Shown piece after piece: positions 8,606 to 52,195 of a stretch of DNA of 64,000 nucleotides. A model generated the notes under the pieces. It was not told the origin of the DNA. It saw nothing but the letters and a program-made list of their open reading frames with translations, and made no database searches. The number at the start of each line of letters is the position of its first letter. Within the stretch, counting starts at the first letter, position 1. Source of the stretch: Candidatus Parcubacteria bacterium (lineage in GTDB: Bacteria; Patescibacteriota; Minisyncoccia; Phycocordibacterales; UBA12088). Position numbers and translations under genes: made by a program. Location of the stretch: assembly GCA_003694545.1 (NCBI GenBank), contig RFKD01000051.1:4505-68504 (forward strand), read 5' to 3'.

Positions 8606-8876
8606 ATGCAAAACAAGGTAGCACAAGACGAGCCTCCGCGCAAGATGCCCTTACCTCAGTTGGGCGGCTCTTTGGCGGTGGCAGGTTTTTCATTGGCGAG
8701 CGGTGAGGAGATTAATGAGGGGGTTGTTATGTTGTGCGACATTGCCTGTGCTATTCTTAATAAGTGGCGGGGGTTATGCGTAAAGTATCGGCGCCACGTT
8801 TTGAGACCTGTTACGGCTCACCTTGCGTTCCCATAGCATCCTACTACCTGTCTTTTTCATCACATGTTTCCTCAAT

Positions 8877-9812: not shown

Positions 9813-9826
9813 TAGAGTACGCGTTA

Positions 9827-10600
9827 ATGCGCCTCGTCTCATGGAATGTTAACGGTTTGCGCGCGGTGGTGCGCAAGGGGGCGTGGCGGCCGTTTCTCCA
9901 GCGTTTTGCCGAGGCTGATGTAATCGGCCTTCAGGAAATAAAAGCCACCCCTGATCAGCTCCCTCCAGAGGCGCGCGCTCCAGAAGGGTGGCGCGCCTAC
10001 TTTCACCCCGCGAGCGTTAAAAAAGGCTACAGCGGTGTTGCGCTTTACACCCGGCGGGAGCCTGATGAAGTGCGCTATGAAATGGGATTTACCGACGAAG
10101 AAGGCAGAATTCTTGGAGCTCGCTTTGGCGATCGTTGGGTATTTTCCGTCTACTTTCCCAACGGAGGAGGCGCGCCCGAGCGCTTTACCTACAAACTTGA
10201 TTTTTACGCCCGCGTGCGTGACGAAGCGGCGCGTTTGACGCAAAGCGGATTTTCCGTTGTGTTGATGGGGGACTTTAATGTCGCGCACCAGCCGATCGAT
10301 TTAGCCCGCCCCAAGGAAAACGAAGGAATGATTGGCTTTCACCCCAAGGAGCGTGCGTGGTTCTCTTCCCTTCTTGCGGCGGGATTCGTCGACTCGTTTC
10401 GCCACTTGTCTCCCGCCCAAGAAGGCGCCTATTCTTGGTGGGATCTTATTACCCGCGCTCGCGAGCGCAATGTGGGCTGGCGCATTGACTACATTGTCGT
10501 GCCGCGGCAAGACGCAGCGGGCATACAGGAGGCCCAAGTGGTGCAGGATGTGCTCGGCTCGGACCACTGCCCGGTCGCACTTACGCTTGATGAGGTATAA
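9827..10600 (+). CDS. xth: exodeoxyribonuclease III (AP endonuclease, ExoIII/APE1 family)
   Basis: MRLVSWNVNGLRA..., DVIGLQEIK, FPNGGG, VLMGDFNVAH, WRIDYIVV, GSDHCPVALTL: all ExoIII family motifs. Confidence 0.92.
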   Translation: MRLVSWNVNGLRAVVRKGAWRPFLQRFAEADVIGLQEIKATPDQLPPEARAPEGWRAYFHPASVKKGYSGVALYTRREPDEVRYEMGFTDEEGRILGARFGDRWVFSVYFPNGGGAPERFTYKLDFYARVRDEAARLTQSGFSVVLMGDFNVAHQPIDLARPKENEGMIGFHPKERAWFSSLLAAGFVDSFRHLSPAQEGAYSWWDLITRARERNVGWRIDYIVVPRQDAAGIQEAQVVQDVLGSDHCPVALTLDEV

Positions 10601-11464: not shown

Positions 11465-12949
11465 CTACACCACGCCGTATTTTTTCAAAATCTCCTTTGT
11501 GGCGGCCTCTTCTGCCTCTTCTTTGGTTTTTTTGCCTTTTTCTCCAATCTGCCGCAGTTCTTCCTCTGGGAGAGCAAGGAGTTCTTGAGCTCGCGCGAGA
11601 AGGTACTCTCTGTTGTTTTTGGAAGGGTCTTCAAGTATCTCTTCGAGCAGAGCATGGAGCACCCAGCCAATCGCAGGCCCTGGTTTCACGTGAAAATGTT
11701 CCATAAGATTCGTCCCGTTGATAGCCAACATACTCACGGAAATCGGATCGCGCAGCGCCTGCTCCACCATTGCGGTGTATTTACGAAGCCGAAACGGCTG
11801 CTCTTTGGGTTTGCCGCTTCCAATGCGGTCGCACATACGCAGGTGGAGAAGATCCCAAATGTTTTCTTTTCCTACACGCTGGATGATGCGCCGAACGGCA
11901 GAGAGGGTAATTTTCTCGGGGTCAGCGAAAAACATATGCCAACGGACAAGCGCCACAACCTTATCCCGCAAGTCGTGGGGAAACTTTAGGCGGTCAAGCG
12001 CGCGTTTCGTGATCGCCGCCCCAACCACCTCATGGTTGTAGAATGTGTGGTCTCCCAAGGCCGGATCGTATGCTTTTGTGGCGGGTTTGCCGATGTCGTG
12101 GAGAAGGGCGGCAAGACGCACCGCAAGAGAAAAGTTTCGGTCGGCGGCATGCTGTACGGAGCGCACAAGATGCTCAAACACATCGTAAATATGGGAGCGG
12201 TTTTGCCCAACATCATAGGTTTCCTCAAGCTCGGGTAACACATAGCGCATAAGGCCGGTTTGGCGCAGCAACGCCATGCCAACTGCCGGGCTGGGGGAGG
12301 CAATAATGCGGATAAACTCATCACGAATTCGCTCGCGAGAAATGTGCTCAAGCAGGGGGGCGTTTTGCGCAATAGCAGTGAGCGTTTCCCCTTCAATGGC
12401 AAGGTTCAATTCAGCGGCAAGCCGAATGGCTCTCAACATCCTTAGTGCGTCTTCAGAAAACCGCTGATTTGGATCTCCTACCGCTCGGATAATTTCCCGG
12501 CGTAAGTCCTCCAATCCGCCAAAGGTATCTATTAAATTTTCACGTGAAATAGAGTACGCCATCGCGTTGATGGTGAAATCGCGCCGCGCGAGGTCTTCTT
12601 CAAGGGAATCCGTAAAAGACACCTCTAAAGGACGCCGAAAATCTGCGTAAGTCCCCTCTGTCCTATACGGCGTTACCTCCACCACTTCGGTGGCTGGGTT
12701 GCCGCTCTCTGTCACCACACCCACGGTTCCAAATTCGTTGTTGTAGTAGGTGTGAGGAAAAAGCCGCTGAATTTTTTCCGGCGTGGCGTTCGTGGTGATG
12801 TCCCAGTCTTTCGGCTCTTTCCCCAAGAGAAGATCCCGCACGCATCCCCCAACGAGGTAGGCTTCGTAACCAGCCTTTTCAAGAGCTTGGGCGACTTCTT
12901 TCACCTCTGGGGGTATGTTGGCAGGAGGAATGGTGGAGGCGGCACGCAT
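11465..12949 (-). CDS. cca: CCA tRNA nucleotidyltransferase / poly(A) polymerase family protein with HD domain
   Basis: GGCVRDLLLGKEPKDWDITTNATPEKI (Pol-beta-like NTase head), RDFTINAMAY, and an HD domain (LLHDIGKPAT). Confidence 0.88.
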   Translation of the reverse strand: MRAASTIPPANIPPEVKEVAQALEKAGYEAYLVGGCVRDLLLGKEPKDWDITTNATPEKIQRLFPHTYYNNEFGTVGVVTESGNPATEVVEVTPYRTEGTYADFRRPLEVSFTDSLEEDLARRDFTINAMAYSISRENLIDTFGGLEDLRREIIRAVGDPNQRFSEDALRMLRAIRLAAELNLAIEGETLTAIAQNAPLLEHISRERIRDEFIRIIASPSPAVGMALLRQTGLMRYVLPELEETYDVGQNRSHIYDVFEHLVRSVQHAADRNFSLAVRLAALLHDIGKPATKAYDPALGDHTFYNHEVVGAAITKRALDRLKFPHDLRDKVVALVRWHMFFADPEKITLSAVRRIIQRVGKENIWDLLHLRMCDRIGSGKPKEQPFRLRKYTAMVEQALRDPISVSMLAINGTNLMEHFHVKPGPAIGWVLHALLEEILEDPSKNNREYLLARAQELLALPEEELRQIGEKGKKTKEEAEEAATKEILKKYGVV

Positions 12950-13576: not shown

Positions 13577-13609
13577 CGCAAATATGATAGCATACTCCCG
13601 CGCCCGTAG

Positions 13610-13682
13610 CTCAATGGATAGAGCGTCTGGCTTCGGACCAGAAGGCTGGGGGTTCGAGTCCTCCCGGGCGCGCAAAACAAGG
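13610..13682 (+). tRNA. tRNA-Arg (anticodon TCG)
   Basis: GCGCCCG TA GCTC AATGGATA GAGC G TCTGG CTTCGGA CCAGA AGGCT GGGGG TTCGAGT CCTCC CGGGCGC G. Full cloverleaf with a 7-bp acceptor stem and a T-loop TTCGAGT. CCA is not encoded. Confidence 0.9.
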
Positions 13683-13693
13683 AGGCGAACGCG

Positions 13694-13714
13694 AAGCGTT
13701 CGCCGACTGTGTCT
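13694..13714. terminator. GC-rich hairpin just downstream of tRNA-Arg (GGCGAACGC-GAA-GCGTTCGCC)
   Basis: Perfect 9-bp stem with a 3-nt loop, 12 nt after the tRNA 3' end. There is no clear U-tract. Confidence 0.35.
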
Positions 13715-14039
13715 TTGCGCTGCCCGGGGGGCCTCGAACTGAGCGCGCCACGAAGTCGCCCCGCGCACGCGCGGGGCGGGCGCGCGAAGCCGGGGTCGCG
13801 AGTTCTTAGGGGACGCACGGAGCGAGAGGCACCACTTCTCTTTTGACGCATAACACTCCCAATCGTTTCATACACAAAGGAGACCCGGTGTCTCGTGGTG
13901 ATTCTGACACACCGCGGCGGTTTATTTGGAAGTGGTAAGAGCCCTCAGCCGCCCGGTAGGGTATCGACAAAACGCTTGTCGAGTTTGCTAAGATGAGGGG
14001 GTGGGTGAGTGAGATTAGCAGGGTAGTGTTTTTTGCGCT

Positions 14040-20959: not shown

Positions 20960-21187
20960 GATGCCCTCCCTGTTGCTCGTGGCAGTTCATTAATATTGTA
21001 CACCTAAATCACTCCCGTGTCAAGTATTTACGATGCACTAGAAATTGCCTTATTTAGCAATATATTTTGGATTGTATGTCCCAAAATTCCTTTTTCCCAA
21101 TGCAAAACCAATATTCAAATGGGAGTGTGGGCATATTGCGCGAGCCGCGGAGCGAAGTTAAGCGGCAAGCGCTGGATAGCATTCCTG

Positions 21188-21387
21188 TCTGGTGCGGGTA
21201 GGGGAAATCGGTCGCCAGTTCTAAGCAAATTCACCGCCTGCGGCGTCTCATTTGCTAAGAACTTGCGACCCCGGCTTCGGAGCAACCCAAACGCGAGTTT
21301 GGGGATCCGCTGCGCCTCAGTTCGATTTCCCCATCGAGCTACAAAATCATAGTTGGCGAATGCTTCGCATCCACCTCCTTGATTTTG
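21188..21387. repeat. tRNA-Gly-associated palindromic repeat element, copy 1 (homologous to 51915-52124)
   Basis: Begins with a copy of the last roughly 17 nt of tRNA-Gly as it appears on the + strand (tgcgggtaggggaaatcgg). It contains a conserved core CCAGTTCTAAGCAAATTC-N-GAATTTGCTAAGAACT (14-bp imperfect inverted repeat around a CCGCCTGCGGCG mini-hairpin) and an inverted T-arm/acceptor-like segment (CTCAGTTCGATTTCCCC...CAAAATCATAG). It ends at the real tRNA 3' end. Confidence 0.6.
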
Positions 21388-21458
21388 TGCGGGTAGGGGG
21401 AATTGAACCCCCGTCTCATCCATGGCAAGGATGCGTTCTACCACTAAACTATACCCGC
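21388..21458 (-). tRNA. tRNA-Gly (anticodon GCC)
   Basis: Reverse complement reads GCGGGTA TA GTTT AGTGGTA GAAC G CATCC TTGCCAT GGATG AGAC GGGGG TTCAATT CCCCC TACCCGC A. Clean cloverleaf, CCA not encoded. Confidence 0.9.
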
Positions 21459-21797
21459 CCAATCTTTAGCGTAGCAAACACGCAAGCTTAGTTCAAGCAA
21501 GCACGCTCGGGCGCATCTCGCAGGGGAGGGGGAGAGCGGCCAGGTGCTTCGGAAACGGCGGCGTTTATAAAAACGCCAAAAAGTCTCAAAACGCCAATGT
21601 CCTTGTGGATAGCGCTGTGGATAGGTGGATAAATCGAAGTCTCCTATGAAAAACAAGGGTTTTTTATAGGTTGTAAGTTGTCTTTAACCTTTACATGCCG
21701 TCTTTTCCGGATCGTATAACCACGCGAGTTGTTGATAACTGAAGGTGTGTCTCACTTGCTGGTCTGCGGAAGCGGGTGTGCTACAGTACTTTCGCGT

Positions 21798-22289: not shown

Positions 22290-22363
22290 CGGGGTGTGGT
22301 GTAATGGTAGCACGCATGCTTTGGGTGCATGTAGTCCGAGTTCGAGTCTCGGCACCCCGACCA
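22290..22363 (+). tRNA. tRNA-Pro (anticodon TGG), CCA encoded
   Basis: CGGGGTG TG GTGT AATGGTA GCAC G CATGC TTTGGGT GCATG TAGT CCGAG TTCGAGT CTCGG CACCCCG A CCA. The AT-rich island begins immediately downstream. Confidence 0.9.
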
Positions 22364-22485: not shown

Positions 22486-22782
22486 TCAGTTTTCTATCCA
22501 GCAGGCGGCGGTTCGTTCCAATTTTCCCGCAACAGATTTTATTTCATCAAAAGCGTCTGACGAAGCCAGTTCTTCAGCGTGATGAGCGGATAAAATCCAC
22601 TCTTTCAATGGTTCAATCCAATTGTTTCCCTTTCGCCCAAAATCAGCCTTTCTTTTGTTAAGGTCTGTTTTTGTTTTAATGAGCTCGTCTTTTTTGGCAA
22701 GATACGTTTCTTTTTCAATACTGCCGTCCAAAAAGGCGTTGACCAATCTATTCAACTTTTGCTGGGTTTCCTCTTGTCCCAA
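22486..22782 (-). pseudogene. 5'-truncated remnant of a large serine recombinase (C-terminal coiled-coil segment only)
   Basis: NRLVNAFLDGSIEKETYLAKKDELIKTKTDLNKRK resembles the C-terminal coiled-coil of large serine recombinases (..AYLDGxIsKEEYlxKKxELexexxeL..). There is no catalytic N-domain. It lies 120 nt from the tRNA-Pro 3' end. Confidence 0.4.
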
Positions 22783-22822
22783 TCTTCCCGTGCGCGGGCG
22801 ACAAAGTGGAACTCCCTATTTG

Positions 22823-22851
22823 TTGACTAAAGCAAAAATAATTCATATACT
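22823..22851 (+). promoter_or_regulatory. sigma70-like promoter for the XRE gene and the downstream defence operon (TTGACT-17 nt-TATACT)
   Basis: -35 TTGACT at 22823-22828, a 17-nt spacer, and -10 TATACT at 22846-22851, about 55 nt upstream of the XRE start. The region is AT-rich, so a chance match is possible. Confidence 0.35.
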
Positions 22852-22907
22852 ACCAATATAAGCAAGAACTTGAGTATACATAACTATATTAATAAAGTTT
22901 TATAATT

Positions 22908-23117
22908 ATGCCAAAGAGTAAAGCAACTATCGGCGAGAATATACGGAAGTACCGCCTGCAAAAAAATATGTCGCAAGACCGCCTGTCTAAATTGGCGGAT
23001 GTCGCTTTTCATACCATCGTCAAGATAGAATCCGGCGAGACGCCAAATCCTACAATAGAAACGGTCAGGAAAATCGCCGCCGCGCTTGGCGTGAGTATTG
23101 ATGATTTAATGAAGTAA
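22908..23117 (+). CDS. XRE-family helix-turn-helix transcriptional regulator (Cro/C1-type)
   Basis: IGENIRKYRLQKNMSQDRLSKLADVAFHTIVKIESGETPNPTIETVRKIAAALGVSIDDL, a canonical HTH_XRE. Its stop is 2 nt before the start of the next gene. Confidence 0.85.
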   Translation: MPKSKATIGENIRKYRLQKNMSQDRLSKLADVAFHTIVKIESGETPNPTIETVRKIAAALGVSIDDLMK

Positions 23118-23119
23118 CT

Positions 23120-26100
23120 ATGACGAACCATTCCGATCTCACATTTATCACAAACGAAGAAGGACAGAATCTCCTCGAGCGTTTCAGGGTGTTGATAAAA
23201 GACACCGAGTTCTTTGATGTCCTTGTAGGCTATTTCTATACCAGCGGCTTTTATACCCTATATAAATCATTGGAGAAAACTAAAAAAATCAGGATTCTTA
23301 TCGGCATCAGCACCAACCGGCAGACACTTGATCTGATAGAAAAGGCAGAGCAACAGGAGCTTACATTCTCCCATGCGGAGACGAAGGAACACTTTTCCAA
23401 TCTGCTTGCTGGAGAAATGGAGAGCGCGGAGGACAGCAGAAAAGTAGAAGAAGGGGTTACAAAGTTTATGGAGTGGTTGCAAAACGGAAAACTCGAAATC
23501 AGGGCGTATCCGACAGAAAATATCCACGCCAAGCTTTACATTATGACTTTTGTAGAGAGCGACAGAGACGTCGGGAGGGTCATCACAGGTTCAAGCAATT
23601 TTACCTACTCAGGCTTAGTGGAAAATCTTGAGTTCAATGTGGAGTTGAAAAACCGCGCTGATTATGAATTCGCCAAAGAAAGATTTGAGGAGCTTTGGAA
23701 AGAAGCTGTTGACGTCAGCGAAAAATACATTCAGACGATTCAGGAAAAAACCTGGCTCAACCCGAATGTAACCCCCTATGAGCTATACCTAAAATTTCTG
23801 TACGAATATTTTAAAGACGAGTTAAGCCAAACCGATGAAATGTTTTGTCGCTACTTACCCCACGACTTCAGGAAACTTGAATATCAGGAGCAAGCGGTTT
23901 TAAACGCCAAAAAAATCCTCGAGGAATACGGTGGTGTATTCATTTCGGATGTTGTGGGTTTGGGAAAGACTTACATTTCAGCCATGATCGCCGGTCAGCT
24001 TGACGGCAGAACGCTGGTCATCGCTCCGCCGGTTTTGCTTGACAAAACAAATCCCGGCTCATGGCCAAATGTGTTTTCCGATTTTCGGATTTCGGCGGAC
24101 TTTGAGTCCATTGGAAAATTAGACGATATCCTGCGCAGAGGAACAGAAAAATACAAGAACATTATTATAGATGAAGCCCATCGATTCCGCACGGAAACCA
24201 ACATCACCTACGAAAAATTAGCCGAAATCTGTCGAGGCAAGCGAGTGATTCTGGTCACAGCCACGCCGTACAACAATTCCCCAAAAGACATCTTAAGCCA
24301 GATAAAGCTGTTCCAAAAAGCAAGGAGAAGCACGATTCCCAATCTGCCTGATTTGGAAGGCTTCTTTGGAGGATTGGAGAGGAAGCTTAAAAAGCTCGAC
24401 AGGCAAAAAGATTACTCCGAATACATCAGAGTAGTTAAAGAGAATGCCAAAGAAATCCGCGAGAAGGTGCTCAAGTATTTGATGGTGCGTCGCACCAGAA
24501 CTGAAATCTTAAAATACTTTCCCGATGATTTGGCTAAGCAAAATCTCAAGTTTCCGGATGTCGATGATCCAATGCCGCTTTTTTACCAGCTTAATGAAGA
24601 AGAAGACAAAATATTCAACACAACCATAGAGATGATTACCAAAAAATTTACTTACGCTCGTTACACGCCACTTTTGCCAAAATACTATAAAGGTTCAATT
24701 GACCTTTTTGAGGAACAATCCCAGAAGAACATGGGTAAGTTCATGAAGATTCTTTTGGTGAAACGGCTTGAGAGCAGCTTCTTTGCTTTCAAGCAATCAA
24801 TTGGCCGCTTTATCTCCTCTTATGAGATGTTTATCAAAGAGTTCAAAAAGGGACATGTTTATATCAGTAAAAAATACGCGAACAAGATTTTTGAATATCT
24901 GGAAAATGATGATGACGAAGCCATCCAAAAGCTGATCGATGGGGGTAAAGCCGAAAGATACGACAGCGAGGATTTTACCGAAGACTTTATCAAAGATCTG
25001 GAAAGCGATCTCACTATATTGACCACTATCTTATCTCTCTGGCAAAACATTAAACGAGATCCCAAACTACTCACGTTCCTTGATGAACTTTCAAAAAATA
25101 AAATACTCCAAAATAAGCTCATCGTTTTTACCGAATCAAGAGAAACCGCCGAATATCTGGCAAGAAATATCAATAATAAATTTGGAGACATCACGCTTTG
25201 TTTTACTGGCAGATCAGAAGAAGCCACCCGCGATAAAGTGATCGATAATTTTGATGCAAAAGTGCGCCATCCCAAAGACGATTATCGCATTCTGGTTTCG
25301 ACCGAGGTCTTGTCAGAGGGCGTCAACCTGCATCGCTCCAATGTGGTCGTAAATTATGACATACCCTGGAATCCAACCCGCATGATGCAAAGGGTCGGAC
25401 GCATCAACAGGATCGATACGACGTTCGACAAAATCTATACTTTTAATTTTTTCCCAACCAAACAATCGAACGACCAGATCAAACTCAAAGAAGCGGCAGA
25501 GGCTAAAATCAATGCTTTTCTTACATTGCTAGGCGGCGATGCGGCGTTGTTAACTGAAGGCGAACCGGTTGACTCACATGAGCTTTTCAATCGGTTAATC
25601 TCCAAAAAGACCCTGATTGGCGAAGACGAAACCGAAGAAAGCGAGCTTAAGTATTTGCAAGTGATTAAAAATATTCGGGACAAAAACCCTGACCTATTTG
25701 AAAAAATCAAGCGTTTGCCCAAGAAAGTCCGGACAGCAAAAAAGGATGTTGGACATCGAGATTCACTGGTAACTTATTTCAGGCGTGGCAAGCTACAGAA
25801 ATTTTTTATAGCTGATCAAAGCTCGGTTGCCAGGGAACTTGATTTTATAAGTGCTGCACGTATACTCGCAAGTGCCAGTGATGATAAAAAACAAAAACTG
25901 CCGGAAAAGTTTTTTGACCTTCTGGATAAAAATAAAGAGGCTTTTCTTCGTGCCACTACCGAAGAGATGGTTGAACCCGTAAAAAAACGTGGTCATGACA
26001 GCGCCGCACAATTGCTCAAAATTCTCAAAGCTACAGTGGGGAACACACAACCGTTCACGGACGAGCAGGAGCAGTATATTAAACAGGTCATCGTCCAGTT

Positions 26101-26308
26101 GGAGGAAGGCGGTTTACCTAGGCAAACAGTCAAAGAAACCCTCAAGGCGCTGAATGAACTCAAGCAGGATTTAATTAACCCGTTTAAAGTGCTGGCTACA
26201 CTGCAAAGCCACATCCCCGAGCAATTTTTACGACAGCACTATGCAGAGCAGAATCCGCGTTCAGTCGGGAAAAGGGAAGTGATTCTATCAATGTATTTAA
26301 CAGGATAA
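23120..26308 (+). CDS. PLD-family (HKD) nuclease domain fused to an SNF2-family helicase (putative restriction / DNA-translocase subunit)
   Basis: N-terminal PLD-like region (KKIRILIGIST...NIHAKLYIMTF...VITGSSNFTYSGL: HxK...GSxN). SNF2 motifs I GLGKTYIS, II IIIDEAHRFR, III VILVTATPYNN, and helicase-C motifs LVSTEVLSEGVNL and NPTRMMQRVGRINR. Confidence 0.85.
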   Translation: MTNHSDLTFITNEEGQNLLERFRVLIKDTEFFDVLVGYFYTSGFYTLYKSLEKTKKIRILIGISTNRQTLDLIEKAEQQELTFSHAETKEHFSNLLAGEMESAEDSRKVEEGVTKFMEWLQNGKLEIRAYPTENIHAKLYIMTFVESDRDVGRVITGSSNFTYSGLVENLEFNVELKNRADYEFAKERFEELWKEAVDVSEKYIQTIQEKTWLNPNVTPYELYLKFLYEYFKDELSQTDEMFCRYLPHDFRKLEYQEQAVLNAKKILEEYGGVFISDVVGLGKTYISAMIAGQLDGRTLVIAPPVLLDKTNPGSWPNVFSDFRISADFESIGKLDDILRRGTEKYKNIIIDEAHRFRTETNITYEKLAEICRGKRVILVTATPYNNSPKDILSQIKLFQKARRSTIPNLPDLEGFFGGLERKLKKLDRQKDYSEYIRVVKENAKEIREKVLKYLMVRRTRTEILKYFPDDLAKQNLKFPDVDDPMPLFYQLNEEEDKIFNTTIEMITKKFTYARYTPLLPKYYKGSIDLFEEQSQKNMGKFMKILLVKRLESSFFAFKQSIGRFISSYEMFIKEFKKGHVYISKKYANKIFEYLENDDDEAIQKLIDGGKAERYDSEDFTEDFIKDLESDLTILTTILSLWQNIKRDPKLLTFLDELSKNKILQNKLIVFTESRETAEYLARNINNKFGDITLCFTGRSEEATRDKVIDNFDAKVRHPKDDYRILVSTEVLSEGVNLHRSNVVVNYDIPWNPTRMMQRVGRINRIDTTFDKIYTFNFFPTKQSNDQIKLKEAAEAKINAFLTLLGGDAALLTEGEPVDSHELFNRLISKKTLIGEDETEESELKYLQVIKNIRDKNPDLFEKIKRLPKKVRTAKKDVGHRDSLVTYFRRGKLQKFFIADQSSVARELDFISAARILASASDDKKQKLPEKFFDLLDKNKEAFLRATTEEMVEPVKKRGHDSAAQLLKILKATVGNTQPFTDEQEQYIKQVIVQLEEGGLPRQTVKETLKALNELKQDLINPFKVLATLQSHIPEQFLRQHYAEQNPRSVGKREVILSMYLTG

Positions 26309-26312
26309 TAAT

Positions 26313-29147
26313 ATGGACAGACAACAAGCTCAAAAGCTGATTAAAGAAACTTTTGAAAATCCTTTTGATAAAGGCAAATTTGCCCGTTTTATAAAAAATC
26401 TCCTTAACCGAGTTGAAGACGCCCCTTTCACGTACCAAGGCAATTATATCCCCGAAGCTTACCAACCTTACATCTCATCGTTGGAGCGTCTTTACAAATA
26501 TTCAGGCGGAGAACATAAGATTGACATACTTGTCGTTCAACTGAAAAAACAAACTTCGCTGGAACGCGCCCGTACCATGCAGCGCAATTTCATTGCCCGG
26601 TACTTAAACGGCAGCCGTGGCGGTGAAATGAAAGATGCCGCGCTGGTTGCCTTTGTTTCTCCTGGTGAAGTGGACTGGCGTTTTTCGCTGATTACAATGG
26701 ACTACCGTTTTGAAGAAACAAAAGACGGAAAAGTAAAAGTCAAAGAAGAATTTACTCCGGCAAGGCGCTGGTCGTTTCTGGTAGGAAGCAACGAAGCCAG
26801 CCACACCGCCCAGAGCCGACTGGTGAACATTCTCGTCGATGATGAGCACCATCCCACACTCCAGCAACTGGAAGAAGCCTTCAACATTGAAACTGTTACC
26901 AAAGAGTTCTTCATCAAATACCGCGAGATGTTTATCCGTACGAAGGAAGAACTGGATACAGTGGTGGCACGAGACGCCAAAATCAAAGCCGATTTTGATG
27001 CCAAAGGTATTGACACGGTCAACTTTGCCAAAAAGCTGCTCGGCCAAATCGTCTTTCTTTATTTTCTGCAAAAGAAAGGCTGGTTTGGCGTCAAGCGGGA
27101 CGCCAAATGGGGTACGGGCTCCAAACATTTTTTACGAGAACTTTTCGAAGGCAAATATGGCAGCTATAACAATTTTTTCAACGATATTCTTGAACCTCTC
27201 TTTTATGAAGCGTTGCGCATCGACCGCAGTCATGACGACCATTATTACAGCCGGTTCAATTGTAAGATTCCGTTTCTGAACGGAGGGCTGTTTGATCCTA
27301 TCGGCAATTACGACTGGGTACACACGGACATCAACATACCGAACGAGCTTTTTTCCAACACAGTAAAAACCAAAGAAGGCGATATTGGTAACGGTATTTT
27401 AGATATCTTTGACCGCTACAACTTTACGGTCAAGGAAGATGAGCCTTTGGAAAAAGAGGTCGCCATCGATCCGGAGCTTTTGGGTAAAACGTATGAAAAA
27501 TTCAACGCTATCCGTCCGGATAATTTTGAAGAATACAAGGCGGCTTTAAAGAGCGGGCAAAAGGGTGCTGAAAACAAGTTCAACAAGACATTTGGTGTTT
27601 ACTACACCCCGCGGGAAATCGTGCATTACATGTGCAAGCAGAGCCTGATTAATTATCTTTTCACTAAGGCGGAAGAAGAGGGGATTTCTAACGATATTAA
27701 AAAGCAAGACATCGAAGACCTGATCGAAATCGGCGAGATGATTACCGAACACGAGGCAACCGCTCTTAACAAAGAGGATAAAATTAGAAACGGCATCCAG
27801 AAATCCACGAAATACGAGAGGCTTTCATCCGACAGTATACGAAAAAATGCCAAAATCATAGATAACTGGCTGGCTGACATTACCGTGTGCGATCCGGCAG
27901 TGGGTTCCGGCGCCTTCCCGGTGGGCATGATGCATGAAATTGTCAAGGCTCGTAATCTCCTTTCCACATTTATTCAAGACCCTAACCGCACCATTTATAC
28001 CTTCAAACGCGAATGCATCGAAAAATCCCTCTATGGCGTGGACATCGACCCCGGCGCGGTGGAGATTGCCAAACTGCGGCTCTGGCTGTCGCTGGTGGTG
28101 GATGAGGATGATATCCGCCAGATCAAGCCTCTGCCGAATTTGGATTATAAAATTGTGTGCGGAAATTCGCTGCTGGGTGTGGAGAAGAATTTGTTTAATA
28201 ACCAACTGTTTGCCGAACTGGAACGACTGAAGCCGCTTTACTTTCATGAAACCAATCCCACAAAAAAGCAGGAATACAAAAAGGAGATTGATGACTTGAT
28301 TAGCCAAATTACCAACGGACATACGGAATTTGATTTTGAGGTCTATTTTTCCGAGGTGTTTCATAAGAAGGGCGGGTTTGATGTGGTGATTGGAAATCCG
28401 CCGTACATCCAACTTCAAAAAGCGATTGATGATAAGCAAAAATACGCTGATCTCTATAAAAATGCATGCTACGAGACTTTTGATAGGTGCGGAGATATTT
28501 ACTGCCTCTTTTATGAAAAAGGCATACACATTCTCCGACCCAATGGCGTTTTGTGTTTTATCACCAGCAATAAATGGATGCGGGCAGGCTACGGCAAATC
28601 TCTCCGAAGATTTTTCCTCAAGCATAATCCCAGACTTTTGATTGATTTAGGTCCCGGCGTTTTTGAAAGCGCGACCGTGGATACCAATATTCTCATAATG
28701 CAAAAATCCGAGGAAAAACCCGCCCCGGTGTGTCTCGATGCTGTTACCTTAACTGAAGAGGCAAAAGAATCGGACATTGCTTTGTATATTAAGAAGAACA
28801 GAAAACGCTTGACGGCTCTGAGCGAGAATGCTTGGTTTATTGGCAGCGCTGCTGAACAGCAACTCAAAGAAAAAATCGAACGCATAGGTAAACCACTGAA
28901 AGATTGGGATGTGAATATTTATTATGGTATTAAAACCGGCCTAAACGAAGCCTTTATCATCACTACTGAAAAGCGTAATGAAATACTAGCAAACTGCAAA
29001 GATGAAGAAGAAAGAAAACGCACCGAAGCCATCATCAAACCTATTTTACGAGGCAGAGATATCAAGCGATATTATCAAGCGATATTATTACGAATGGGCA
29101 GGGTTTTGGGTGATAGTAATTCCAGCAGGCTGGACAAATGTAAATAA
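26313..29147 (+). CDS. gamma-class N6-adenine DNA methyltransferase (Eco57I/PglX/type IIG-like), interrupted near its C-terminus by a frameshift
   Basis: FGVYYTPREIVHYMCKQSL (motif X), CDPAVGSGAFPVG (motif I), VIGNPPYIQLQ (motif IV NPPY), and a long N-terminal domain typical of PglX/type IIG enzymes. The reading frame ends KPILRGRDIKRYYQAILLRMG... just after the ILRGRDIKRY TaqI_C hallmark. Confidence 0.85.
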   Translation: MDRQQAQKLIKETFENPFDKGKFARFIKNLLNRVEDAPFTYQGNYIPEAYQPYISSLERLYKYSGGEHKIDILVVQLKKQTSLERARTMQRNFIARYLNGSRGGEMKDAALVAFVSPGEVDWRFSLITMDYRFEETKDGKVKVKEEFTPARRWSFLVGSNEASHTAQSRLVNILVDDEHHPTLQQLEEAFNIETVTKEFFIKYREMFIRTKEELDTVVARDAKIKADFDAKGIDTVNFAKKLLGQIVFLYFLQKKGWFGVKRDAKWGTGSKHFLRELFEGKYGSYNNFFNDILEPLFYEALRIDRSHDDHYYSRFNCKIPFLNGGLFDPIGNYDWVHTDINIPNELFSNTVKTKEGDIGNGILDIFDRYNFTVKEDEPLEKEVAIDPELLGKTYEKFNAIRPDNFEEYKAALKSGQKGAENKFNKTFGVYYTPREIVHYMCKQSLINYLFTKAEEEGISNDIKKQDIEDLIEIGEMITEHEATALNKEDKIRNGIQKSTKYERLSSDSIRKNAKIIDNWLADITVCDPAVGSGAFPVGMMHEIVKARNLLSTFIQDPNRTIYTFKRECIEKSLYGVDIDPGAVEIAKLRLWLSLVVDEDDIRQIKPLPNLDYKIVCGNSLLGVEKNLFNNQLFAELERLKPLYFHETNPTKKQEYKKEIDDLISQITNGHTEFDFEVYFSEVFHKKGGFDVVIGNPPYIQLQKAIDDKQKYADLYKNACYETFDRCGDIYCLFYEKGIHILRPNGVLCFITSNKWMRAGYGKSLRRFFLKHNPRLLIDLGPGVFESATVDTNILIMQKSEEKPAPVCLDAVTLTEEAKESDIALYIKKNRKRLTALSENAWFIGSAAEQQLKEKIERIGKPLKDWDVNIYYGIKTGLNEAFIITTEKRNEILANCKDEEERKRTEAIIKPILRGRDIKRYYQAILLRMGRVLGDSNSSRLDKCK

Positions 29148-29718
29148 AGGTGAAGTCACCGCAGAAAAATTTATAAACATGAAGTTTCCTGCATTAATGC
29201 AGTATTTGAAAATATATGAAGAAAAAGCCAGAAAACGCGATGATCAAGGTGATTATTGGTGGGAATTACGCCATTGTGCCTACTACCCCGAATTTGAGAA
29301 AGAGAAGGTGGTGTGGAGTGATATTGCCTCAGAACCAACTGTTACCGTTTTACCTAAGGGATTATATTTCAATAATACCGTTTACATGGTTTCTTCAAGA
29401 ACCCCACGCTATTTTGCCGGTATTTTAAATTCTCGCGTGATAAAATGGTATTTCTCTAAAATAGCAACGGATCTAGGAGAAAAAGGTCGGCGCTTTTTTA
29501 AAATCTTTGTTGAGGTTATGCCTTTGATACCCATCACCCCTGCCAACCAGCCCATTGTTCAGCAAATAGAGGCATTGGTAGATAAAATCCTTGCAGAAAA
29601 GAAACAAAACCCGCAAGCAGACACCAAAGAATACGAACACCAGATTGACCAGCTCGTCTATAAACTCTACGATCTGACACCGGAGGAAATTAAGATTGTG
29701 GAAAATTCACGATCGTGA
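29002..29718 (+). CDS. C-terminal TaqI_C-like target-recognition segment of the methyltransferase, in the +1 frame (continuation after the 13-bp duplication)
   Basis: The +1 frame gives DIIKRYYYEWAGFWVIVIPAGWTNV...WWELRHCAYYPEF...YFAGILNSRVIKWYF, which matches the TaqI_C / type IIG specificity-domain pattern (WxELR..YY, LNS.v..wy). Confidence 0.7.
   Translation: MKKKENAPKPSSNLFYEAEISSDIIKRYYYEWAGFWVIVIPAGWTNVNKGEVTAEKFINMKFPALMQYLKIYEEKARKRDDQGDYWWELRHCAYYPEFEKEKVVWSDIASEPTVTVLPKGLYFNNTVYMVSSRTPRYFAGILNSRVIKWYFSKIATDLGEKGRRFFKIFVEVMPLIPITPANQPIVQQIEALVDKILAEKKQNPQADTKEYEHQIDQLVYKLYDLTPEEIKIVENSRS
29064..29089 (+). repeat. perfect 13-bp tandem duplication (caagcgatattat x2) causing a +1 frameshift inside the methyltransferase
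   Basis: Read directly from the sequence: 29064-29076 equals 29077-29089. Removing one copy restores ...ILRGRDIKRYYYEWAGFWVIVIPAGW..., the expected TaqI_C continuation. Confidence 0.9.
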
Positions 29719-31967
29719 ATATGATCACTCGCGTAATAAAAATTAAAAACTGTGCGTCATTTGTTGATTTTGTACCGGGTGCCGACCTGCCGGCATTTAG
29801 GAAATACAACTTAATTTACGGATGGAATGGATCGGGTAAAACCAATTTTTCACGAGTATTACGTTCTTTTGAATTACGGGAAAATTATTATGCTGACTTG
29901 AATAATCCAACAGAATTTGAATTTCAACTTGATAATGGTACAGCAATAAGTCAACAAGATTTAACGGTTTTCCCAAATATTCGAGTGTTTAACAAGGATT
30001 TTATCAATGAGAGCGTTTTTTGTACCGGCGGACCAAAGCCGATTTTCTTTCTGAGTAAAGAAAGTAAGGAAGACCAAGAAAAAATCATGCAACTAGGGAA
30101 TCAATTACGGAAATTGAGAGAAGATTTAGATTTTAAAAGAGCACTCCTTGATAAAGCTAAAATAAGAAAAGAAAAAATGCTTTCTGATAAAGCGCGTGAT
30201 ATTAAAACCGCTCTCACAACATCTCGTAGTGATAAGTACAGAAATTATGAACGGCCAAATCTAGAAAAAGCAATTCAGGACAACGTGAATGAACTTAAAA
30301 GCAATGTCGATAAATATAAATTGGCAGGGGATAGAGTTGCCATTCTCCAAAAGACAATACAACAAACGACTAAGCCAAAAGTTGAATCTTTGGCATTCCC
30401 AGATTTTGATATTTCTGAAACTGTAAGTGAGGTAAAAAAAGTTTTACAGACTACTGTTACTTCTCATATTATTGAGAGTCTTAAATTGGATGAGATGCTG
30501 AATAAGTGGGTAGAGCATGGGCTTTCTATTCACAAGGAAAGAGGGCTGAAAAATTGCGCTTTTTGTAATCAAGTAATCCCGCATCATAGATTTTCGGAAC
30601 TAGAACAACACTTTAACGATGATTACCAAAGGCTTATTGAGGAGCTGAGTAGCTTAAAGCAAACACTTGAAGGTAAAAAAATTTCAATTTCTTTTCCAGA
30701 CGCTTCAAGTTTTTATGACGATTTAATAGAAGAGTATTTAAACGCCAAAAAAGAAGCTGAAGAAATAGTTAAGAAATTTAATCAAAACATAGATTCTCTT
30801 ATTTCTGCTCTTGTGCAGAAGGAGCAAAGGCCATTTTCAAAAGTAGATTTAGAAGAATGGAAACAAGTTGAAATAAGGCCATTTGAAAATATAAACATTA
30901 TTATTTCAAAGCATAACGAAAGGTCAGACAATTTTGATAAACAAATAGATGAAAGTAAACACATTTTAGAGATGCACTATATTGCAGATTTTATCCATTC
31001 TTATTTTGAACAGATGGATGAAATAGAAAAACTAGAGAAAGAAGTTTCGGAATTAGAGAATGAAATAAAAACTAACGAGACGAAAGAAAACGAGTTAAAA
31101 AACTCACTCATAAGTCATCGCATTCCCGCTAATCGGATTAACGAAGACTTGAAGCATTTTTTGGGACGTGATGATATTCGCCTAGTTGCTACCGATAAGG
31201 AGGAAGGTTATCAGATTTTCCGTAACGGAACGCTTGCAAAAGATTTAAGCGAGGCCGAAAAAACTGCATTGGCGCTCGTATATTTTCTGACAAAAATACA
31301 CGAGAAAGGGTTTGACTTGAAAAATGGTGTGATTGTTATGGATGATCCGGTTTCAAGCTTTGATTCTAATTCAATTTTTCAAGCATTTGGGTTTATCAAA
31401 GAGTCAATCAAAGAGGCAAAACAGATTTTTATTTTGACACATCACTTTGACTTTTTTAGACAAGTGAAAAATTGGTTTTCGTATTACAAGGAAGATGAAC
31501 GAGAATTCTTTATGATGGTATGCGGCAAAGAAGATTCAGTGAGAAAGTCCCGAATTGCAACAATCGACAAATTACTGATTGGCTATGAATCCGAATACCA
31601 CTTTTTGTTTAGCATTTTGTACAGATTTGCGAAAAATAATGAAGTACAATTGGAAAACGCATATCCAATTCCAAATATTGCGCGTAAATTTCTTGAGAGT
31701 TTTTTGGCTTTCAGAGTACCTGTTTTAGCAAACGGACGACAAAAAGAGCCGAACTTGTACCATAGATTGGAAAAAATTGATTTTGATAAAAAAAAGAAGG
31801 AACGTATTCTCCGGTTTATTGAAACTCACTCCCATCCGCGATACGAGTCTGGAGTACAAGATTTTGACATGACTATTTTGGGAGAGACGAAAGAAATCGT
31901 GAATGATTTACTTGCTTTAGTAGAGCACGAAGACAAAAAACACTTTGAATTTTTAGTGAAAAGTTAG
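29715..31967 (+). CDS. RloC/PrrC-like AAA_13 family ATPase (restriction-linked anticodon-nuclease-type protein) with coiled-coil CxxC zinc-hook
   Basis: Walker A NLIYGWNGSGKTNFSRVL at the N-terminus. A roughly 400-aa K/E-rich coiled-coil contains NCAFCNQVIPHH (CxxC). ABC-signature-like LSEAEKTALALVYFL, Walker B/D-loop VIVMDDPVSSFDSNS, H-loop IFILTHHFDF, and a C-terminal R/E/H-rich segment (KKERILRFIETHSHPRYE). GTG at 29715 overlaps the upstream stop (GTGA); an alternative ATG is at 29721. Confidence 0.75.
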   Translation: MNMITRVIKIKNCASFVDFVPGADLPAFRKYNLIYGWNGSGKTNFSRVLRSFELRENYYADLNNPTEFEFQLDNGTAISQQDLTVFPNIRVFNKDFINESVFCTGGPKPIFFLSKESKEDQEKIMQLGNQLRKLREDLDFKRALLDKAKIRKEKMLSDKARDIKTALTTSRSDKYRNYERPNLEKAIQDNVNELKSNVDKYKLAGDRVAILQKTIQQTTKPKVESLAFPDFDISETVSEVKKVLQTTVTSHIIESLKLDEMLNKWVEHGLSIHKERGLKNCAFCNQVIPHHRFSELEQHFNDDYQRLIEELSSLKQTLEGKKISISFPDASSFYDDLIEEYLNAKKEAEEIVKKFNQNIDSLISALVQKEQRPFSKVDLEEWKQVEIRPFENINIIISKHNERSDNFDKQIDESKHILEMHYIADFIHSYFEQMDEIEKLEKEVSELENEIKTNETKENELKNSLISHRIPANRINEDLKHFLGRDDIRLVATDKEEGYQIFRNGTLAKDLSEAEKTALALVYFLTKIHEKGFDLKNGVIVMDDPVSSFDSNSIFQAFGFIKESIKEAKQIFILTHHFDFFRQVKNWFSYYKEDEREFFMMVCGKEDSVRKSRIATIDKLLIGYESEYHFLFSILYRFAKNNEVQLENAYPIPNIARKFLESFLAFRVPVLANGRQKEPNLYHRLEKIDFDKKKKERILRFIETHSHPRYESGVQDFDMTILGETKEIVNDLLALVEHEDKKHFEFLVKS

Positions 31968-51791: not shown

Positions 51792-51914
51792 GTATACTCA
51801 AGACGGCGCTGCTTAGTCAGGCGCTTATGGTTGATTGTATCATTTATCTTTGCCGCAGTCTCTCGTTCTCCTGTTTCTCTCGCACTTCACAATACTTAGC
51901 AAGGCTTCGCCTTT

Positions 51915-52124
51915 CGCTCCTTGATTTTGTGCGGGTGGGGGGAATCGGTCACCAGTTCTAAGCAAATTCGCCGCCTCCGGCGTCTCATTTGCTAAGAACT
52001 CGCGACCCCGACCTCGGCGCCCGCCACGCTTCGCGTGGCGACTTCGTGGCGCCTCGGTTCGATTCCCCCACCGCGCTCCAAAATCATAGTCGCGCGACGC
52101 TTCGCCTCGCGCTCCTTGATTTTG
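51915..52124. repeat. tRNA-Gly-associated palindromic repeat element, copy 2 (homologous to 21188-21387)
   Basis: Flanked by an exact 33-bp direct repeat cgctccttgattttgtgcgggtggggggaatcg (51915-51947 and 52110-52142), which is the last 18 nt of tRNA-Gly(TCC) plus 15 nt of 3' flank. The interior shares CCAGTTCTAAGCAAATTC...ATTTGCTAAGAACT and the inverted GGTTCGATTCCCCCCACCGCGCTCCAAAATCATAG with copy 1. Confidence 0.65.
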
Positions 52125-52195
52125 TGCGGGTGGGGGGAATCGAACCCCCGACCTCAGCTTGGAAGGCTGATGTTTTACCACTAAACTACACCCGC
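52125..52195 (-). tRNA. tRNA-Gly (anticodon TCC)
   Basis: Reverse complement reads GCGGGTG TA GTTT AGTGGTA AAAC A TCAGC CTTCCAA GCTGA GGTC GGGGG TTCGATT CCCCC CACCCGC A. Confidence 0.9.

Follow-up and report, generated by a model that had tools for sequence, protein, structure and literature searches.

Three of the four tRNA genes in the 64,000-nt stretch of a Candidatus Parcubacteria genome analysed here (the window) are directly followed at their 3' side by a non-coding, hairpin-rich unit of approximately 195 bp, which begins with a spare copy of the 3' end of its own tRNA. With a probability of about one half, we consider these units to be a non-autonomous, non-coding mobile DNA element of approximately 195 to 260 bp, belonging to a family that is widespread among Patescibacteria and for which the T-loop and the 3' end of tRNA genes serve as the site of attachment.

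Units behind three tRNA genes in the window

At both tRNA-Gly genes, which are located on the minus strand and were detected by ARAGORN and Rfam, the unit has the same order of segments: a hairpin module (hp1), an inverted copy of the tRNA 3' part (B), a second hairpin region (hp2), a third hairpin (hp3) and, last, the tRNA 3' part repeated in direct orientation. Copy 1 belongs to tRNA-Gly(GCC) (21388-21458), the final 18 nt of which, from C56 in the T-loop to the discriminator (T, 21405-21388), are the proximal copy of the repeat. The first base directly 3' of the discriminator is that of hp1 (21342-21387), a terminator-like hairpin module of 46 nt with the sequence CAAAATCAAGGAG-GGTGGATGC GAA GCATTCGCC-AACTATGATTTTG. 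It is followed by the imperfect inverted copy B (21321-21341, TAGCTCGATGGGGAAATCGAA), whose last bases are the complement of T54-A58 of the T-loop, by the variable hp2 region (21274-21320) with the hairpin CCCAAAC TCGC GTTTGGG, and by hp3 (21211-21273; 68.2 bits), which contains the conserved foot CGGGGTCGCAAGTTCTTAG ... CTTAGAACTGGCGAC, a tandem G-A internal loop and the apical GCC-GCA-GGC. The distal, displaced tRNA 3' part CGATTTCCCCTACCCGCAC (21210-21192) begins at the equivalent of C56 and matches the proximal sequence CAATTCCCCCTACCCGCAC (21405-21387) exactly over 13 bases and in 17 of 19 positions overall, at a spacing of 195 nt.

Copy 2, behind tRNA-Gly(TCC) (52125-52195; T at 52142-52125), contains hp1 at 52079-52124 (46 nt, loop GCGAAGC), B at 52058-52078 (GAGCGCGGTGGGGGAATCGAA, an inverted copy of the 3' part of tRNA-Gly(TCC)), the hp2 region at 52011-52057 with a GGCGCC...GGCGCC stem around CGCCACGC GAA GCGTGGCG, and hp3 at 51948-52010 (76.3 bits). 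Several paired positions of the hp1 stem are changed between the two copies with pairing kept. The distal direct repeat (51915-51947) comprises 33 nt, namely the 18 nt of the tRNA from C56 on and 15 nt of the trailer: the 33-mer CGATTCCCCCCACCCGCACAAAATCAAGGAGCG is found at 52142-52110 and again at 51947-51915, at a spacing of exactly 195 nt. A distal hp1-like remnant is present at 51888-51929 (CAAAATCAAGGAGCGAAAGGCGAAGCCTTGCTAAGTATTGTG), where a sister genome (L056) harbours a full second hp1. The two regions, including tRNA, unit and short flanks, have a mean column identity of 85%, and hp3 is 92.7% identical across 82 nt. The 21-mer GTTCTTAGCAAATGAGACGCC occurs window-wide only at the two Gly units, and none of 100 shuffles contained any match. 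These data bear out the sequence-only reading in that homologous elements with a duplicated tRNA 3' end exist at both tRNA-Gly genes, that the repeat is an exact 33-mer in copy 2 and a shorter one in copy 1, and that both units contain an inverted segment resembling the tRNA 3' end.

The only ORFs on the Gly units (21115-21462 and 51840-52181) lie on the strand of the tRNA genes, with which they overlap, and are taken to be spurious. When the flank beyond the distal repeat was aligned as a candidate older, decayed unit, the local alignment score of 11 was not above that of shuffles (9.3 +/- 1.5). An island bounded by a tRNA-Pro repeat was looked for, and none was found.

The third unit is located on the plus strand behind tRNA-Arg(TCG) (13600-13672; ARAGORN and Rfam). 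Its hp1 (13673-13717) is homologous to hp1 of the Gly units, while its B (13718-13738, CGCTGCCCGGGGGGCCTCGAA) is an inverted copy of the 3' part of tRNA-Arg and not of tRNA-Gly. The hp2 region follows at 13739-13790, and of hp3 only the 5' arm is present (13791-13809), the homology ending at 13809. A distal hp3 3' arm or a tRNA-Arg repeat, which would be a sign of a cargo-carrying element, was looked for and neither was found; since both features are absent, copy 3 is a truncated unit. The specificity for tRNA-Gly that had been proposed from the sequence alone does not hold, because of this copy and of relatives located at tRNAs with 16 anticodons.

Relatives, junctions and empty sites

Related loci were retrieved with an exact 19-mer, a block common to all three window copies, and the apparent conservation of the hp3 foot is therefore partly an artefact. 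The search for copies elsewhere, as the sequence-only reading had suggested, yielded dozens in 41 loci, 26 from metagenomes and 15 from metagenome-assembled genomes (MAGs). The lineage-labelled MAG records belong to Patescibacteria (Campbellbacteria, Yonathbacteria, Saccharibacteria-labelled and unclassified), with the exception of two contigs binned as 'Gammaproteobacteria' and one labelled just 'bacterium'; the HU protein encoded in the window is 97% identical to one labelled Candidatus Parcubacteria. Judging from these records, the family is widespread in Patescibacteria. The host tRNAs are Val-TAC, Ser-GCT, Ser-TGA, Gly-GCC, Gly-TCC, Ala-TGC, Leu-TAG, Met-CAT, Ile-GAT, Arg-TCG, Arg-GCG, Arg-TCT, Trp-CCA, Lys-CTT, Gln-CTG and Pro-TGG. 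Across different tRNAs the hp1 modules are homologous, and the orientation of the unit is always that of the tRNA. B was found at 25 of the 42 tRNA genes in the examined loci, a proportion biased by the selection of these loci with a probe for the element. Tandem arrays of two to three units from different subfamilies occur, in some loci occupying up to approximately 0.7 kb behind the tRNA, and decaying distal copies are common. Two loci (L013 and L033) contain simply truncated units like copy 3 of the window, one (L031) a hybrid unit, and one (L017) a classical anticodon-loop duplication beside such units.

When genomes were scanned with a 20-mer taken from the hp3 loop, no match was obtained, and searches of viral contigs (with two patterns) and of a phage database likewise gave none. 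At the gathering score of Rfam only tRNAs matched, and at E <= 10 over the units only weak, chance-level matches were obtained, among them no family, ribozyme or intron. We found no description of this unit family in the literature; a paper on Patescibacteria tRNAs has as its subject group I introns in the anticodon loop.

Units in which hp3 is complete and an upstream tRNA was detected all continue directly after hp3 with the sequence of the local tRNA from C56 on. Where an exact upstream match could be mapped, the repeat starts 19 nt before the tRNA end given by ARAGORN, and B starts approximately 51-54 nt past the tRNA. The junction is thus inside the T-loop, at C56, and not at the tRNA 3' end as previously read. 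The direct repeat always begins at C56 and ranges from 12-13 exact nt up to approximately 59 nt in L056, in which it spans the whole trailer hairpin; because it can take in this entire hairpin, it is not the simple short target-site duplication that had been supposed. Further, B and the direct repeat are each a copy of the tRNA next to them (Gly versus Arg in the window, other tRNAs elsewhere); the element has no invariant terminal inverted repeats. In young units T, hp1 and B constitute a near-perfect palindrome about the hp1 loop (19 of 19 positions in L040). For the Gly units, T:B hairpins with strong z-scores are predicted. The hp1 of one relative (L014) fits the pattern of an intrinsic terminator.

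In most units the distal copy of the tRNA part has suffered truncation or mutation, and B is closer to the live tRNA than to the displaced copy. For these reasons a conserved RNA three-way junction closed by B and the distal repeat was rejected. Two other candidates were dropped by eye: B as a primer-binding site of the retroviral type, since B copies the genomic trailer and not the CCA end, and a hammerhead-like core (CUGANGA / GAA / UH), since the junction sequences are unsuitable. At locus L039 all three displaced copies of the tRNA part have a common 6-nt insertion absent from the live tRNA, which does not fit a successive displacement of once-functional 3' ends.

A strain with 99.6% identity (L002; 44 SNPs in 10 kb) lacks exactly 195 bp at tRNA-Gly(TCC), corresponding to one repeat and the 162 nt between the repeats. 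Among relatives, L056 has a full unit, L059 hp1 and a stub of B, and the more distantly related L057 and L060 an unrelated, naive trailer; hp1 is absent at the naive sites. Together with the dozens of other copies, the empty-site allele and the naive sites uphold the claim of an insertion-like, repeated miniature element and speak against a segmental duplication or a normal tandem tRNA gene, the alternatives considered along with it. At the same time, mobility is opposed by the 'empty' allele of L002 itself, which retains an hp1-like module, and the 195-bp polymorphism could equally be explained by deletion between the 33-bp repeats. Nor was the unit seen in free or circular form, which is also an argument against a mobile element.

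Mobile element, structured RNA or remnant

The folding and covariation analyses proposed along with the sequence-only reading gave strong signals. The RNA folds of the two Gly stretches (tRNA plus unit) had z-scores of -10.0 and -6.8 against shuffles, and the single-stranded DNA folds of the 195-nt units alone -11.6 and -5.3. In the hp3 stem, 35 double-change cells were counted versus 13.2 +/- 2.9 in shuffles, 0 of 500 of which reached this number, and the upper stem is 83% paired versus 58% with shuffled partners. The tRNA-sense strand of hp3 folds better in 24 of 24 variants (G-U pairs: 27 versus 6), while hp2 shows no strand bias. The upper hp3 stem gives no RNA-specific signal, since there G-T counts 2 versus 5 for A-C. 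Based on the covariation and the better fold of the sense strand, we infer that hp3 works in single-stranded form; both properties would suit an RNA as well as an intermediate of single-stranded DNA.

The main rival explanation, which we regard as rather doubtful, is that the unit encodes a structured non-coding RNA in the tRNA sense, originating from read-through of the tRNA or reaching from B to the next hp1 terminator, with a role concerning the cognate tRNA and with the repeats as functional RNA parts instead of insertion scars. For example, B-hp2-hp3-T could be a mimic of a tRNA minihelix, whose acceptor and T stems take their 5' strand from B, or an antisense RNA or decoy for the tRNA 3' half. 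Such an RNA would be in line with the covariation of hp3, with the strong preference for its sense strand (more G-U pairs, tandem G-A motifs, GNRA/GNA loops), with the very stable folds, with the invariable co-orientation of unit and tRNA, and with the frequency of the units in very small genomes. In sequence, B corresponds to the 5' strands of the acceptor and T stems, and B:T pairing would copy the acceptor/T helix. However, a terminator-like hairpin is located between the tRNA and B, the helix of B with the distal T is not kept (the latter being truncated or mutated in most units), and the arrays contain decaying copies. The presence or absence of the unit among strains with 99.6% identity and its absence at the same tRNA in relatives are hard to reconcile with this RNA, as are the lack of strand bias in hp2 and of any Rfam match even at E <= 10; no promoter was identified.

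The mobile element that we favour can be pictured as follows. In the tRNA sense, the integrated unit consists of T (C56 to the discriminator), the terminator-like hp1, the inverted T (B), hp2 and hp3, behind which the previous tRNA 3' part is displaced downstream. Since the unit supplies T and hp1, the tRNA would stay intact and keep a terminator while the displaced copy decays, and repeated events would build up the arrays. The moving form may be a unit-length single-stranded molecule of the tRNA-sense strand, presumably the lagging-strand template in co-oriented tRNA genes. Pairing of T with B is predicted to result in a hairpin that imitates the double-stranded tRNA gene between T-loop and 3' end and would be capped by hp1 at one side and by hp2/hp3 at the other. 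The conserved hp3 foot beside the junction is a putative binding site of a trans-acting enzyme catalysing strand exchange in the T-loop, for which a tyrosine recombinase (for instance the product of an Xer-type gene at 8823-9812) or an HUH-type nuclease are candidates. T and B could be matched to a new tRNA by copying from the target at insertion, or by later conversion within the palindrome.

Against this element stands that no transposase, integrase or other enzyme could be tied to it. There are no ORFs inside the units, and an integrase was not found beside any of them. Clustering of the ORFs within 4 kb or less of the units revealed clusters confined to few, mostly orthologous loci and none that is family-wide, and the window ORFs scanned include no Y1 HUH transposase (TnpA or RAYT). 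The Xer-type gene mentioned above is the sole integrase-family gene in the window, lies approximately 3.8 kb from the nearest unit and is probably an ordinary chromosome-dimer resolvase. Moreover, conserved segments (hp1, hp2, hp3) alternate with the target-specific T and B in one genome, an order that no simple integration model predicts. A bolder idea, in our opinion unlikely, is that of a novel type of mobile unit whose attachment arms are made from the target: when inserting into the T-loop, which is universally conserved, it would copy the 3' part of the local tRNA twice, inverted as B and directly, so that any tRNA could be used and repaired without a pre-adapted attP. This would proceed via a single-stranded, hairpin-primed or template-switching step or via an RNA intermediate, with the hp3 foot as the only fixed recognition element.

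Quite unlikely is the possibility that larger elements with an integrase of their own (phages or genomic islands) integrated in tRNA T-loops and that the units are the scars left when their interior was deleted with fusion of attL and attR, as in cis-mobilizable elements; an integrase encoded elsewhere may still mobilise such remnants. A direct repeat of the 3' part from the T-loop on, together with a restored tRNA, is indeed what tyrosine integrases targeting tRNA genes classically leave behind. These tRNAs are visited by conventional elements (compare the anticodon-loop duplication of L017), and tandem accretion is seen at one and the same tRNA. Scars are nevertheless difficult to reconcile with a uniform size of approximately 195-260 bp over dozens of loci and 16 tRNA species, and with one hp2/hp3 core behind many tRNAs, as an integrase lineage normally keeps to a single tRNA. 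Furthermore, no integrase lies beside any unit, no cargo-carrying version was seen (copy 3, L013 and L033 being simply truncated), viral contigs and the phage database gave no matches, and hp3 has the properties of a single-stranded structure. Highly improbable, and as a complete explanation already largely refuted, are local replication errors at tRNA terminators without mobility in trans, in which fold-back template switching at the hairpin would copy the tRNA 3' part first in inverted and then in direct orientation, the product being spread by gene conversion: the near-perfect T-hp1-B palindromes of young units (19/19 in L040) are exactly what quasi-palindrome switching produces, and the direct-inverted-direct target copies resemble its products, but local errors cannot yield hp1 and hp2-hp3 cores homologous behind unrelated tRNAs, within a genome and across genera, and hp1 is missing at naive sites; such switching might survive as the step generating B.

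Significance and comparison with known systems

Patescibacteria have very small genomes, in which mobile DNA was believed to be scarce. Should the units be mobile, they exemplify a way of inserting into the essential, universally conserved T-loop at no cost for the host, since the element brings along the missing tRNA end and a terminator, and the question is raised how conserved modules come to interleave with target-matched segments. If they are RNAs, they would represent a new tRNA-linked class in a phylum known for its unusual RNA biology. In practice, the units break short-read assemblies at tRNA genes (three other short-read contigs end exactly at the repeat), can produce chimeric contigs, and may mislead island-detection tools that rely on displaced tRNA fragments.

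Among known systems, elements integrating into tRNA genes by tyrosine integrases (phages P4, P22 and L5, genomic islands) share with the units the T-loop junction, the replacement 3' part brought by the element, the old part as a far direct repeat around the insert, the restored tRNA, and accretion. Williams is said to have defined in 2002 sublocation classes of integration sites in tRNA genes, including a T-loop class. In contrast to such elements, the unit comprises only about 200 bp and contains neither an integrase nor another gene, at least 16 tRNA species instead of a single one are used by the same core, and an inverted copy of the tRNA part and hairpins with single-strand properties are present. 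Like MITEs, the units are small (195-258 bp), non-coding, multi-copy, structured and strain-polymorphic; unlike in MITEs, their inverted repeats are local target copies and not fixed ends, the duplication measures 18 to approximately 60 bp compared with 2-10 bp, insertion is strictly at one tRNA position, and no parent IS or other parent element was found. Of the MITE-like or integrase-mobilised element proposed from the sequence alone, the small, non-coding, multi-copy and insertion-like character stands; fixed terminal inverted repeats, a short duplication of fixed length and an integrase gene inside or beside the unit, as known from such elements, were not found.

Derivatives of IS200/IS605 (PATEs) and the REP/RAYT system resemble the units in having imperfect subterminal hairpins with conserved mismatches that are active on one strand, an orientation fixed to a short conserved target, and mini-hairpin loops of the type C-GNA-G. 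They differ in that no TnpA or RAYT was found near the units, the two end hairpins of the unit are mutually unrelated, and target copies are carried. In CTX-phi attP(+), other Xer-exploiting elements and integron attC sites, two inverted half-sites of a single strand can form a hairpin imitating the target duplex, as is predicted for T and B; the conservation of structure with varying sequence, the strand asymmetry and the tandem build-up at the site recur in the units. The units, in comparison, target the tRNA T-loop and not dif or attI, a role of Xer or IntI is only putative, and the unit, much smaller than CTX-phi, includes a terminator as well as a tRNA part. Finally, in the pdif modules of Acinetobacter plasmids, short modules lie between sequences resembling recombination sites in alternating orientation, comparable to the succession T, B, T in the units. 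While the sites of the units are tRNA 3' parts that differ by locus, are chromosomal at tRNA genes and flank non-coding modules, the modules of both appear to reassort, as indicated in the units by different hp1 modules combined with the same hp2 and by the hybrid unit of L031.

Repeat units behind three tRNA genes

The window contains four tRNA genes: tRNA-Arg(TCG) (13600-13672, plus strand), tRNA-Gly(GCC) (21388-21458, minus strand), tRNA-Pro(TGG) (22290-22363, plus strand) and tRNA-Gly(TCC) (52125-52195, minus strand). Aligned in tRNA sense, the two Gly regions (tRNA, unit and short flanks) have a mean column identity of 85%. At tRNA-Gly(TCC) (copy 2), an exact 33-mer comprising 18 nt of the tRNA from the T-loop and 15 nt of the trailer is found again 195 nt downstream; at tRNA-Gly(GCC) (copy 1), the tRNA 3’-end is repeated with 17 of 19 matches, likewise 195 nt downstream. 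A 21-mer of the conserved hairpin is present within the window solely at these two sites, and shuffles gave zero matches. The fixed spacing and the restriction of the 21-mer to two sites show that the sequence-only reading described the Gly repeats correctly.

In tRNA sense, a unit starts with T, the 3’ portion of the tRNA running from C56 through the discriminator. Directly behind the discriminator begins the hairpin hp1, which measures 45-46 nt in the window copies, all three included; A-rich sequence flanks its GC stem on the 5’ side and T-rich sequence on the 3’ side, and the loop is of the GCGAAGC type. The hp1 hairpin is followed by B, an inverted copy of T of approximately 21 nt, which terminates in TCGAA, the complement of T54-A58, and covers 2-4 nt more of the T-loop than the repeat in direct orientation does. 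Then come the variable hp2, hp3 (59-63 nt, with the foot CGGGGTCGCGAGTTCTTAG...CTTAGAACTGGTGAC) and a second copy of T. The predicted single-stranded DNA fold of each 195-nt unit consists of three hairpins, T:B capped by hp1, hp2 and hp3 (folding z of -11.6 and -5.3). Folded as RNA, the tRNA-plus-unit stretches were also far stabler than shuffles (z of -10.0 and -6.8).

When the units were compared with the window by short-word BLAST, a partial match appeared right behind tRNA-Arg(TCG). This copy 3 (13673-13809, plus strand) is truncated: it contains hp1, B and hp2, but of hp3 just the 5’ arm, inside which sequence homology to the other units ends at 13809. While hp1 and hp2 are homologous to those of the other units, B (CGCTGCCCGGGGGGCCTCGAA) is the inverted 3’ part of the Arg tRNA, not of a Gly tRNA. 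Thus hp1 to hp3 are common to the units, and T and B match the local tRNA. The copy counting by BLAST that had been proposed for an element of tRNA-Gly genes did find a further copy in the window, but at tRNA-Arg. Two short-read contigs begin at approximately 13769-13780, within the hp2 region of copy 3 just upstream of hp3.

According to the window sequence, tRNA-Pro(TGG) is without a unit, and no repeat of its 3’-end was found anywhere in the window. Just past it starts a block (22486-31967) encoding an HTH protein, a PLD-SNF2 helicase (DISARM DrmD-like), an Eco57I-type methylase, a TaqI_C specificity protein and an AAA_13 ATPase, which looks like a defence island. In all three unit-bearing genes CCA is not encoded, and CAAAA stands directly after the discriminator. 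A gene for a CCA-adding enzyme (PolyA_pol, tRNA_NucTran2_2; 11465-12949, minus strand) is located directly upstream of tRNA-Arg(TCG). The contig of the window was also found in GCA_026004575.1, and the window HU protein is 97% identical to an HU labelled Candidatus Parcubacteria.

Distribution and architecture of the family

Public collections were scanned with the block common to all three window copies, CGGGGTCGCRAGTTCTTAG, and loci were retrieved by an exact 19-mer; all material consists of MAGs and metagenome contigs. The scan yielded 26 loci from metagenomes and 15 from species-representative genomes. The lineage-labelled genome records are MAGs of Patescibacteria, among them the complete Campbellbacteria genome CP011215.1 and a MAG of Yonathbacteria, except for two contigs assigned to Gammaproteobacteria bins and one that bears just the label “bacterium”. 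The two “uncultured Gammaproteobacteria” contigs (L042, L044) share an identical unit with several JGI metagenome contigs and are therefore likely mis-binned. One contig (L030), in which the upstream side of tRNA-Ser(GCT) is joined to a downstream flank known from tRNA-Ser(TGA), is probably an assembly chimera via an identical unit. Rfam contains no family for the units, phage and viral sequence searches gave no match, and no description of them was found in the literature searched.

The tRNAs preceding the units represent 16 different anticodons, and unit and tRNA always share one orientation; with the unit at tRNA-Arg(TCG), this contradicts the suggested specificity for tRNA-Gly. Wherever hp3 was complete and a tRNA was detected upstream, the units examined all continue directly after hp3 with the sequence of the local tRNA, beginning at C56, and exact upstream matches, where mappable, all begin at the C56 position. 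Unit length is 195-258 nt across loci, and B mostly starts 51-54 nt past the tRNA. In a core-independent search of the fetched loci for repeated tRNA parts, 25 of 42 non-redundant tRNAs proved to have an inverted copy downstream, a count biased by the choice of loci with the probe. The search also uncovered sister families with the same architecture and different hp3 sequences; in one of them, at tRNA-Gln (L038), paired changes in the outermost part of the hp3 foot were read by eye.

In several loci (L019, L026, L031, L039, L049, L050) B carries a small inserted hairpin between its acceptor-complementary and T-stem-complementary parts; the stem of this hairpin varies, its loop AAACTGCTTT is conserved, and it is absent from the window. 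One unit in a marine sediment contig (L026) is located at a non-tRNA sequence; its direct repeat measures at least 55 nt, and its B is complementary to about the first 12 nt of the repeat plus a few upstream bases. Behind a tRNA-Arg(TCT) (L016, 861-933, minus strand), hp1 and a perfect B precede an unrelated insert of approximately 230 nt, which is closed by the long-range stem CCCAGCCCTAC...GTAGGGCTGGG and followed by a later-starting tRNA-end repeat, TTCCTGCC... Judging from this locus, the hp1/B frame can carry other cargo.

Evidence for gain, loss and decay of units

The HU gene adjoining tRNA-Gly(TCC) led us to seven contigs with an identical HU protein. One of them, L002, lacks exactly 195 bp, corresponding to one repeat and the interior. 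With 44 substitutions in 10 kb it represents a distinct strain and not a collapsed assembly of the window strain; its “empty” allele retains the distal hp1-like sequence. Three further short-read contigs terminate exactly at the repeat, and a k=31 assembly graph would be expected to break there wherever the unit is present. Copy 1 was found in all four assemblies covering its site. More distantly related versions of this locus have an unrelated trailer without hp1 (L057 and L060, HU 87% and 82% identical), so that the anticipated empty sites do exist at tRNA-Gly(TCC). L059 (HU 84%) carries hp1 and a B stub, and L056 (HU 97%) a full unit with a direct repeat of approximately 59 nt, comprising T and the entire hp1. 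The absence of hp1 from L057 and L060 and its duplication in L056 indicate that it is element-derived and that the distal hp1-like sequence of the window (51929-51888) is a decayed second copy.

Tandem arrays of two or three units per tRNA exist behind tRNA-Trp and tRNA-Lys in L017 and behind tRNA-Gly(GCC) in L039, L022 and L031, and arrayed units often belong to different subfamilies. Distal tRNA-part copies are often truncated or mutated, and in most units the live tRNA is a closer match to B than the displaced copy is. No recurring protein family was found near the units. Arrays, decay and the lack of a linked protein are what a selfish non-autonomous element leaves behind, not what would be expected if an RNA helix of B with the distal repeat were being maintained. 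At tRNA-Lys(CTT) of L017 (10480-10600, minus strand), the tRNA is duplicated from the anticodon loop to the 3’-end, a classical integrase-type footprint, and T-loop units follow; thus, two kinds of tRNA-targeting insertion occurred at one gene.

Strand preference of hp3 and a model for the units

In 24 distinct sequences the 20-pair helix of hp3 is 89.5% paired, and nine pairs have changes on both sides. Double-change cells amount to 35, versus 13.2 ± 2.9 after shuffling (none of 500 shuffles as high), although the relatedness of the sequences inflates the p-values. Pairing fell to 27-48% when the partners were shifted by one to three columns, and in an anchored analysis the variable upper stem was 83% paired, compared with 58 ± 3.5% when the partners were shuffled. 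Recurring features are tandem G-A motifs and loops of the C-GNA-G or GNNA type. In all 24 sequences the tRNA-sense strand gives a more stable fold than the complement (mean difference -6.4 kcal/mol), with 27 G-U pairs versus 6; the bias is weaker for hp1 (20 of 24) and missing for hp2. These predictions argue, in a clear direction, for selection acting on hp3 as a fold of the single-stranded sense strand, which fits RNA or sense-strand single-stranded DNA. G-T and G-A are the most stable mismatches in DNA, and therefore the hp3 data do not separate the two.

The best-supported reading is that the units are a non-autonomous mobile element with the tRNA T-loop and 3’-end as attachment site. That they are instead a structured RNA is unlikely: the covariation, strand bias and G-U pairs of hp3 would suit it, while the decaying distal repeat, the arrays, the presence/absence polymorphism and the terminator-like hp1 would not. 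An intrinsic-terminator pattern was matched by hp1 of L014; a simple scan gave no such match for the window hp1 copies. Still less probable are scars of larger integrase elements, with which the repeat geometry agrees, since unit size is uniform, the tRNA range wide, integrases are absent and a strand bias exists. Purely local replication errors are very improbable as they cannot explain a common core behind unrelated tRNAs; template switching may nevertheless be the step producing B.

For the mobile element, we propose that an incoming unit brings a replacement tRNA 3’ part and a terminator, displacing the old 3’ part. A unit-length sense-strand molecule would fold with T pairing to B, and this hairpin would imitate the tRNA gene duplex between T-loop and 3’-end. 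A recombinase or nuclease acting in trans could bind the conserved hp3 foot beside the junction, a putative binding site, and exchange strands in the T-loop. The only recombinase among the window ORFs scanned is a Xer-type tyrosine recombinase (8823-9812, plus strand; XerD/XerC/XerA models, 235-251 bits); nothing was found tying it to the units, and only the lack of other candidates makes it a possible trans factor. An exodeoxyribonuclease III gene follows it (block 8823-10600, plus strand).

The mobile-element model does not explain the additional 2-4 nt of T-loop covered by B, the AAACTGCTTT hairpin, or a 6-nt insertion common to all three displaced T copies of L039 and missing from the live tRNA. 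Nor does it explain how conserved and target-matched modules interleave within one genome (T, hp1, B, hp2-hp3, T): T and B are either copied from the target at insertion or re-programmed later, e.g. by conversion within the palindrome. Among known kinds, the units are filed nearest to tRNA-integrating elements and MITE-like repeats, and there is a real chance that their mechanism is new. The nearest precedents are tRNA-integrating elements with crossover in the T-loop, the folded single-stranded attP of CTX-phi, integron attC sites and the one-strand hairpins of IS200/IS605.
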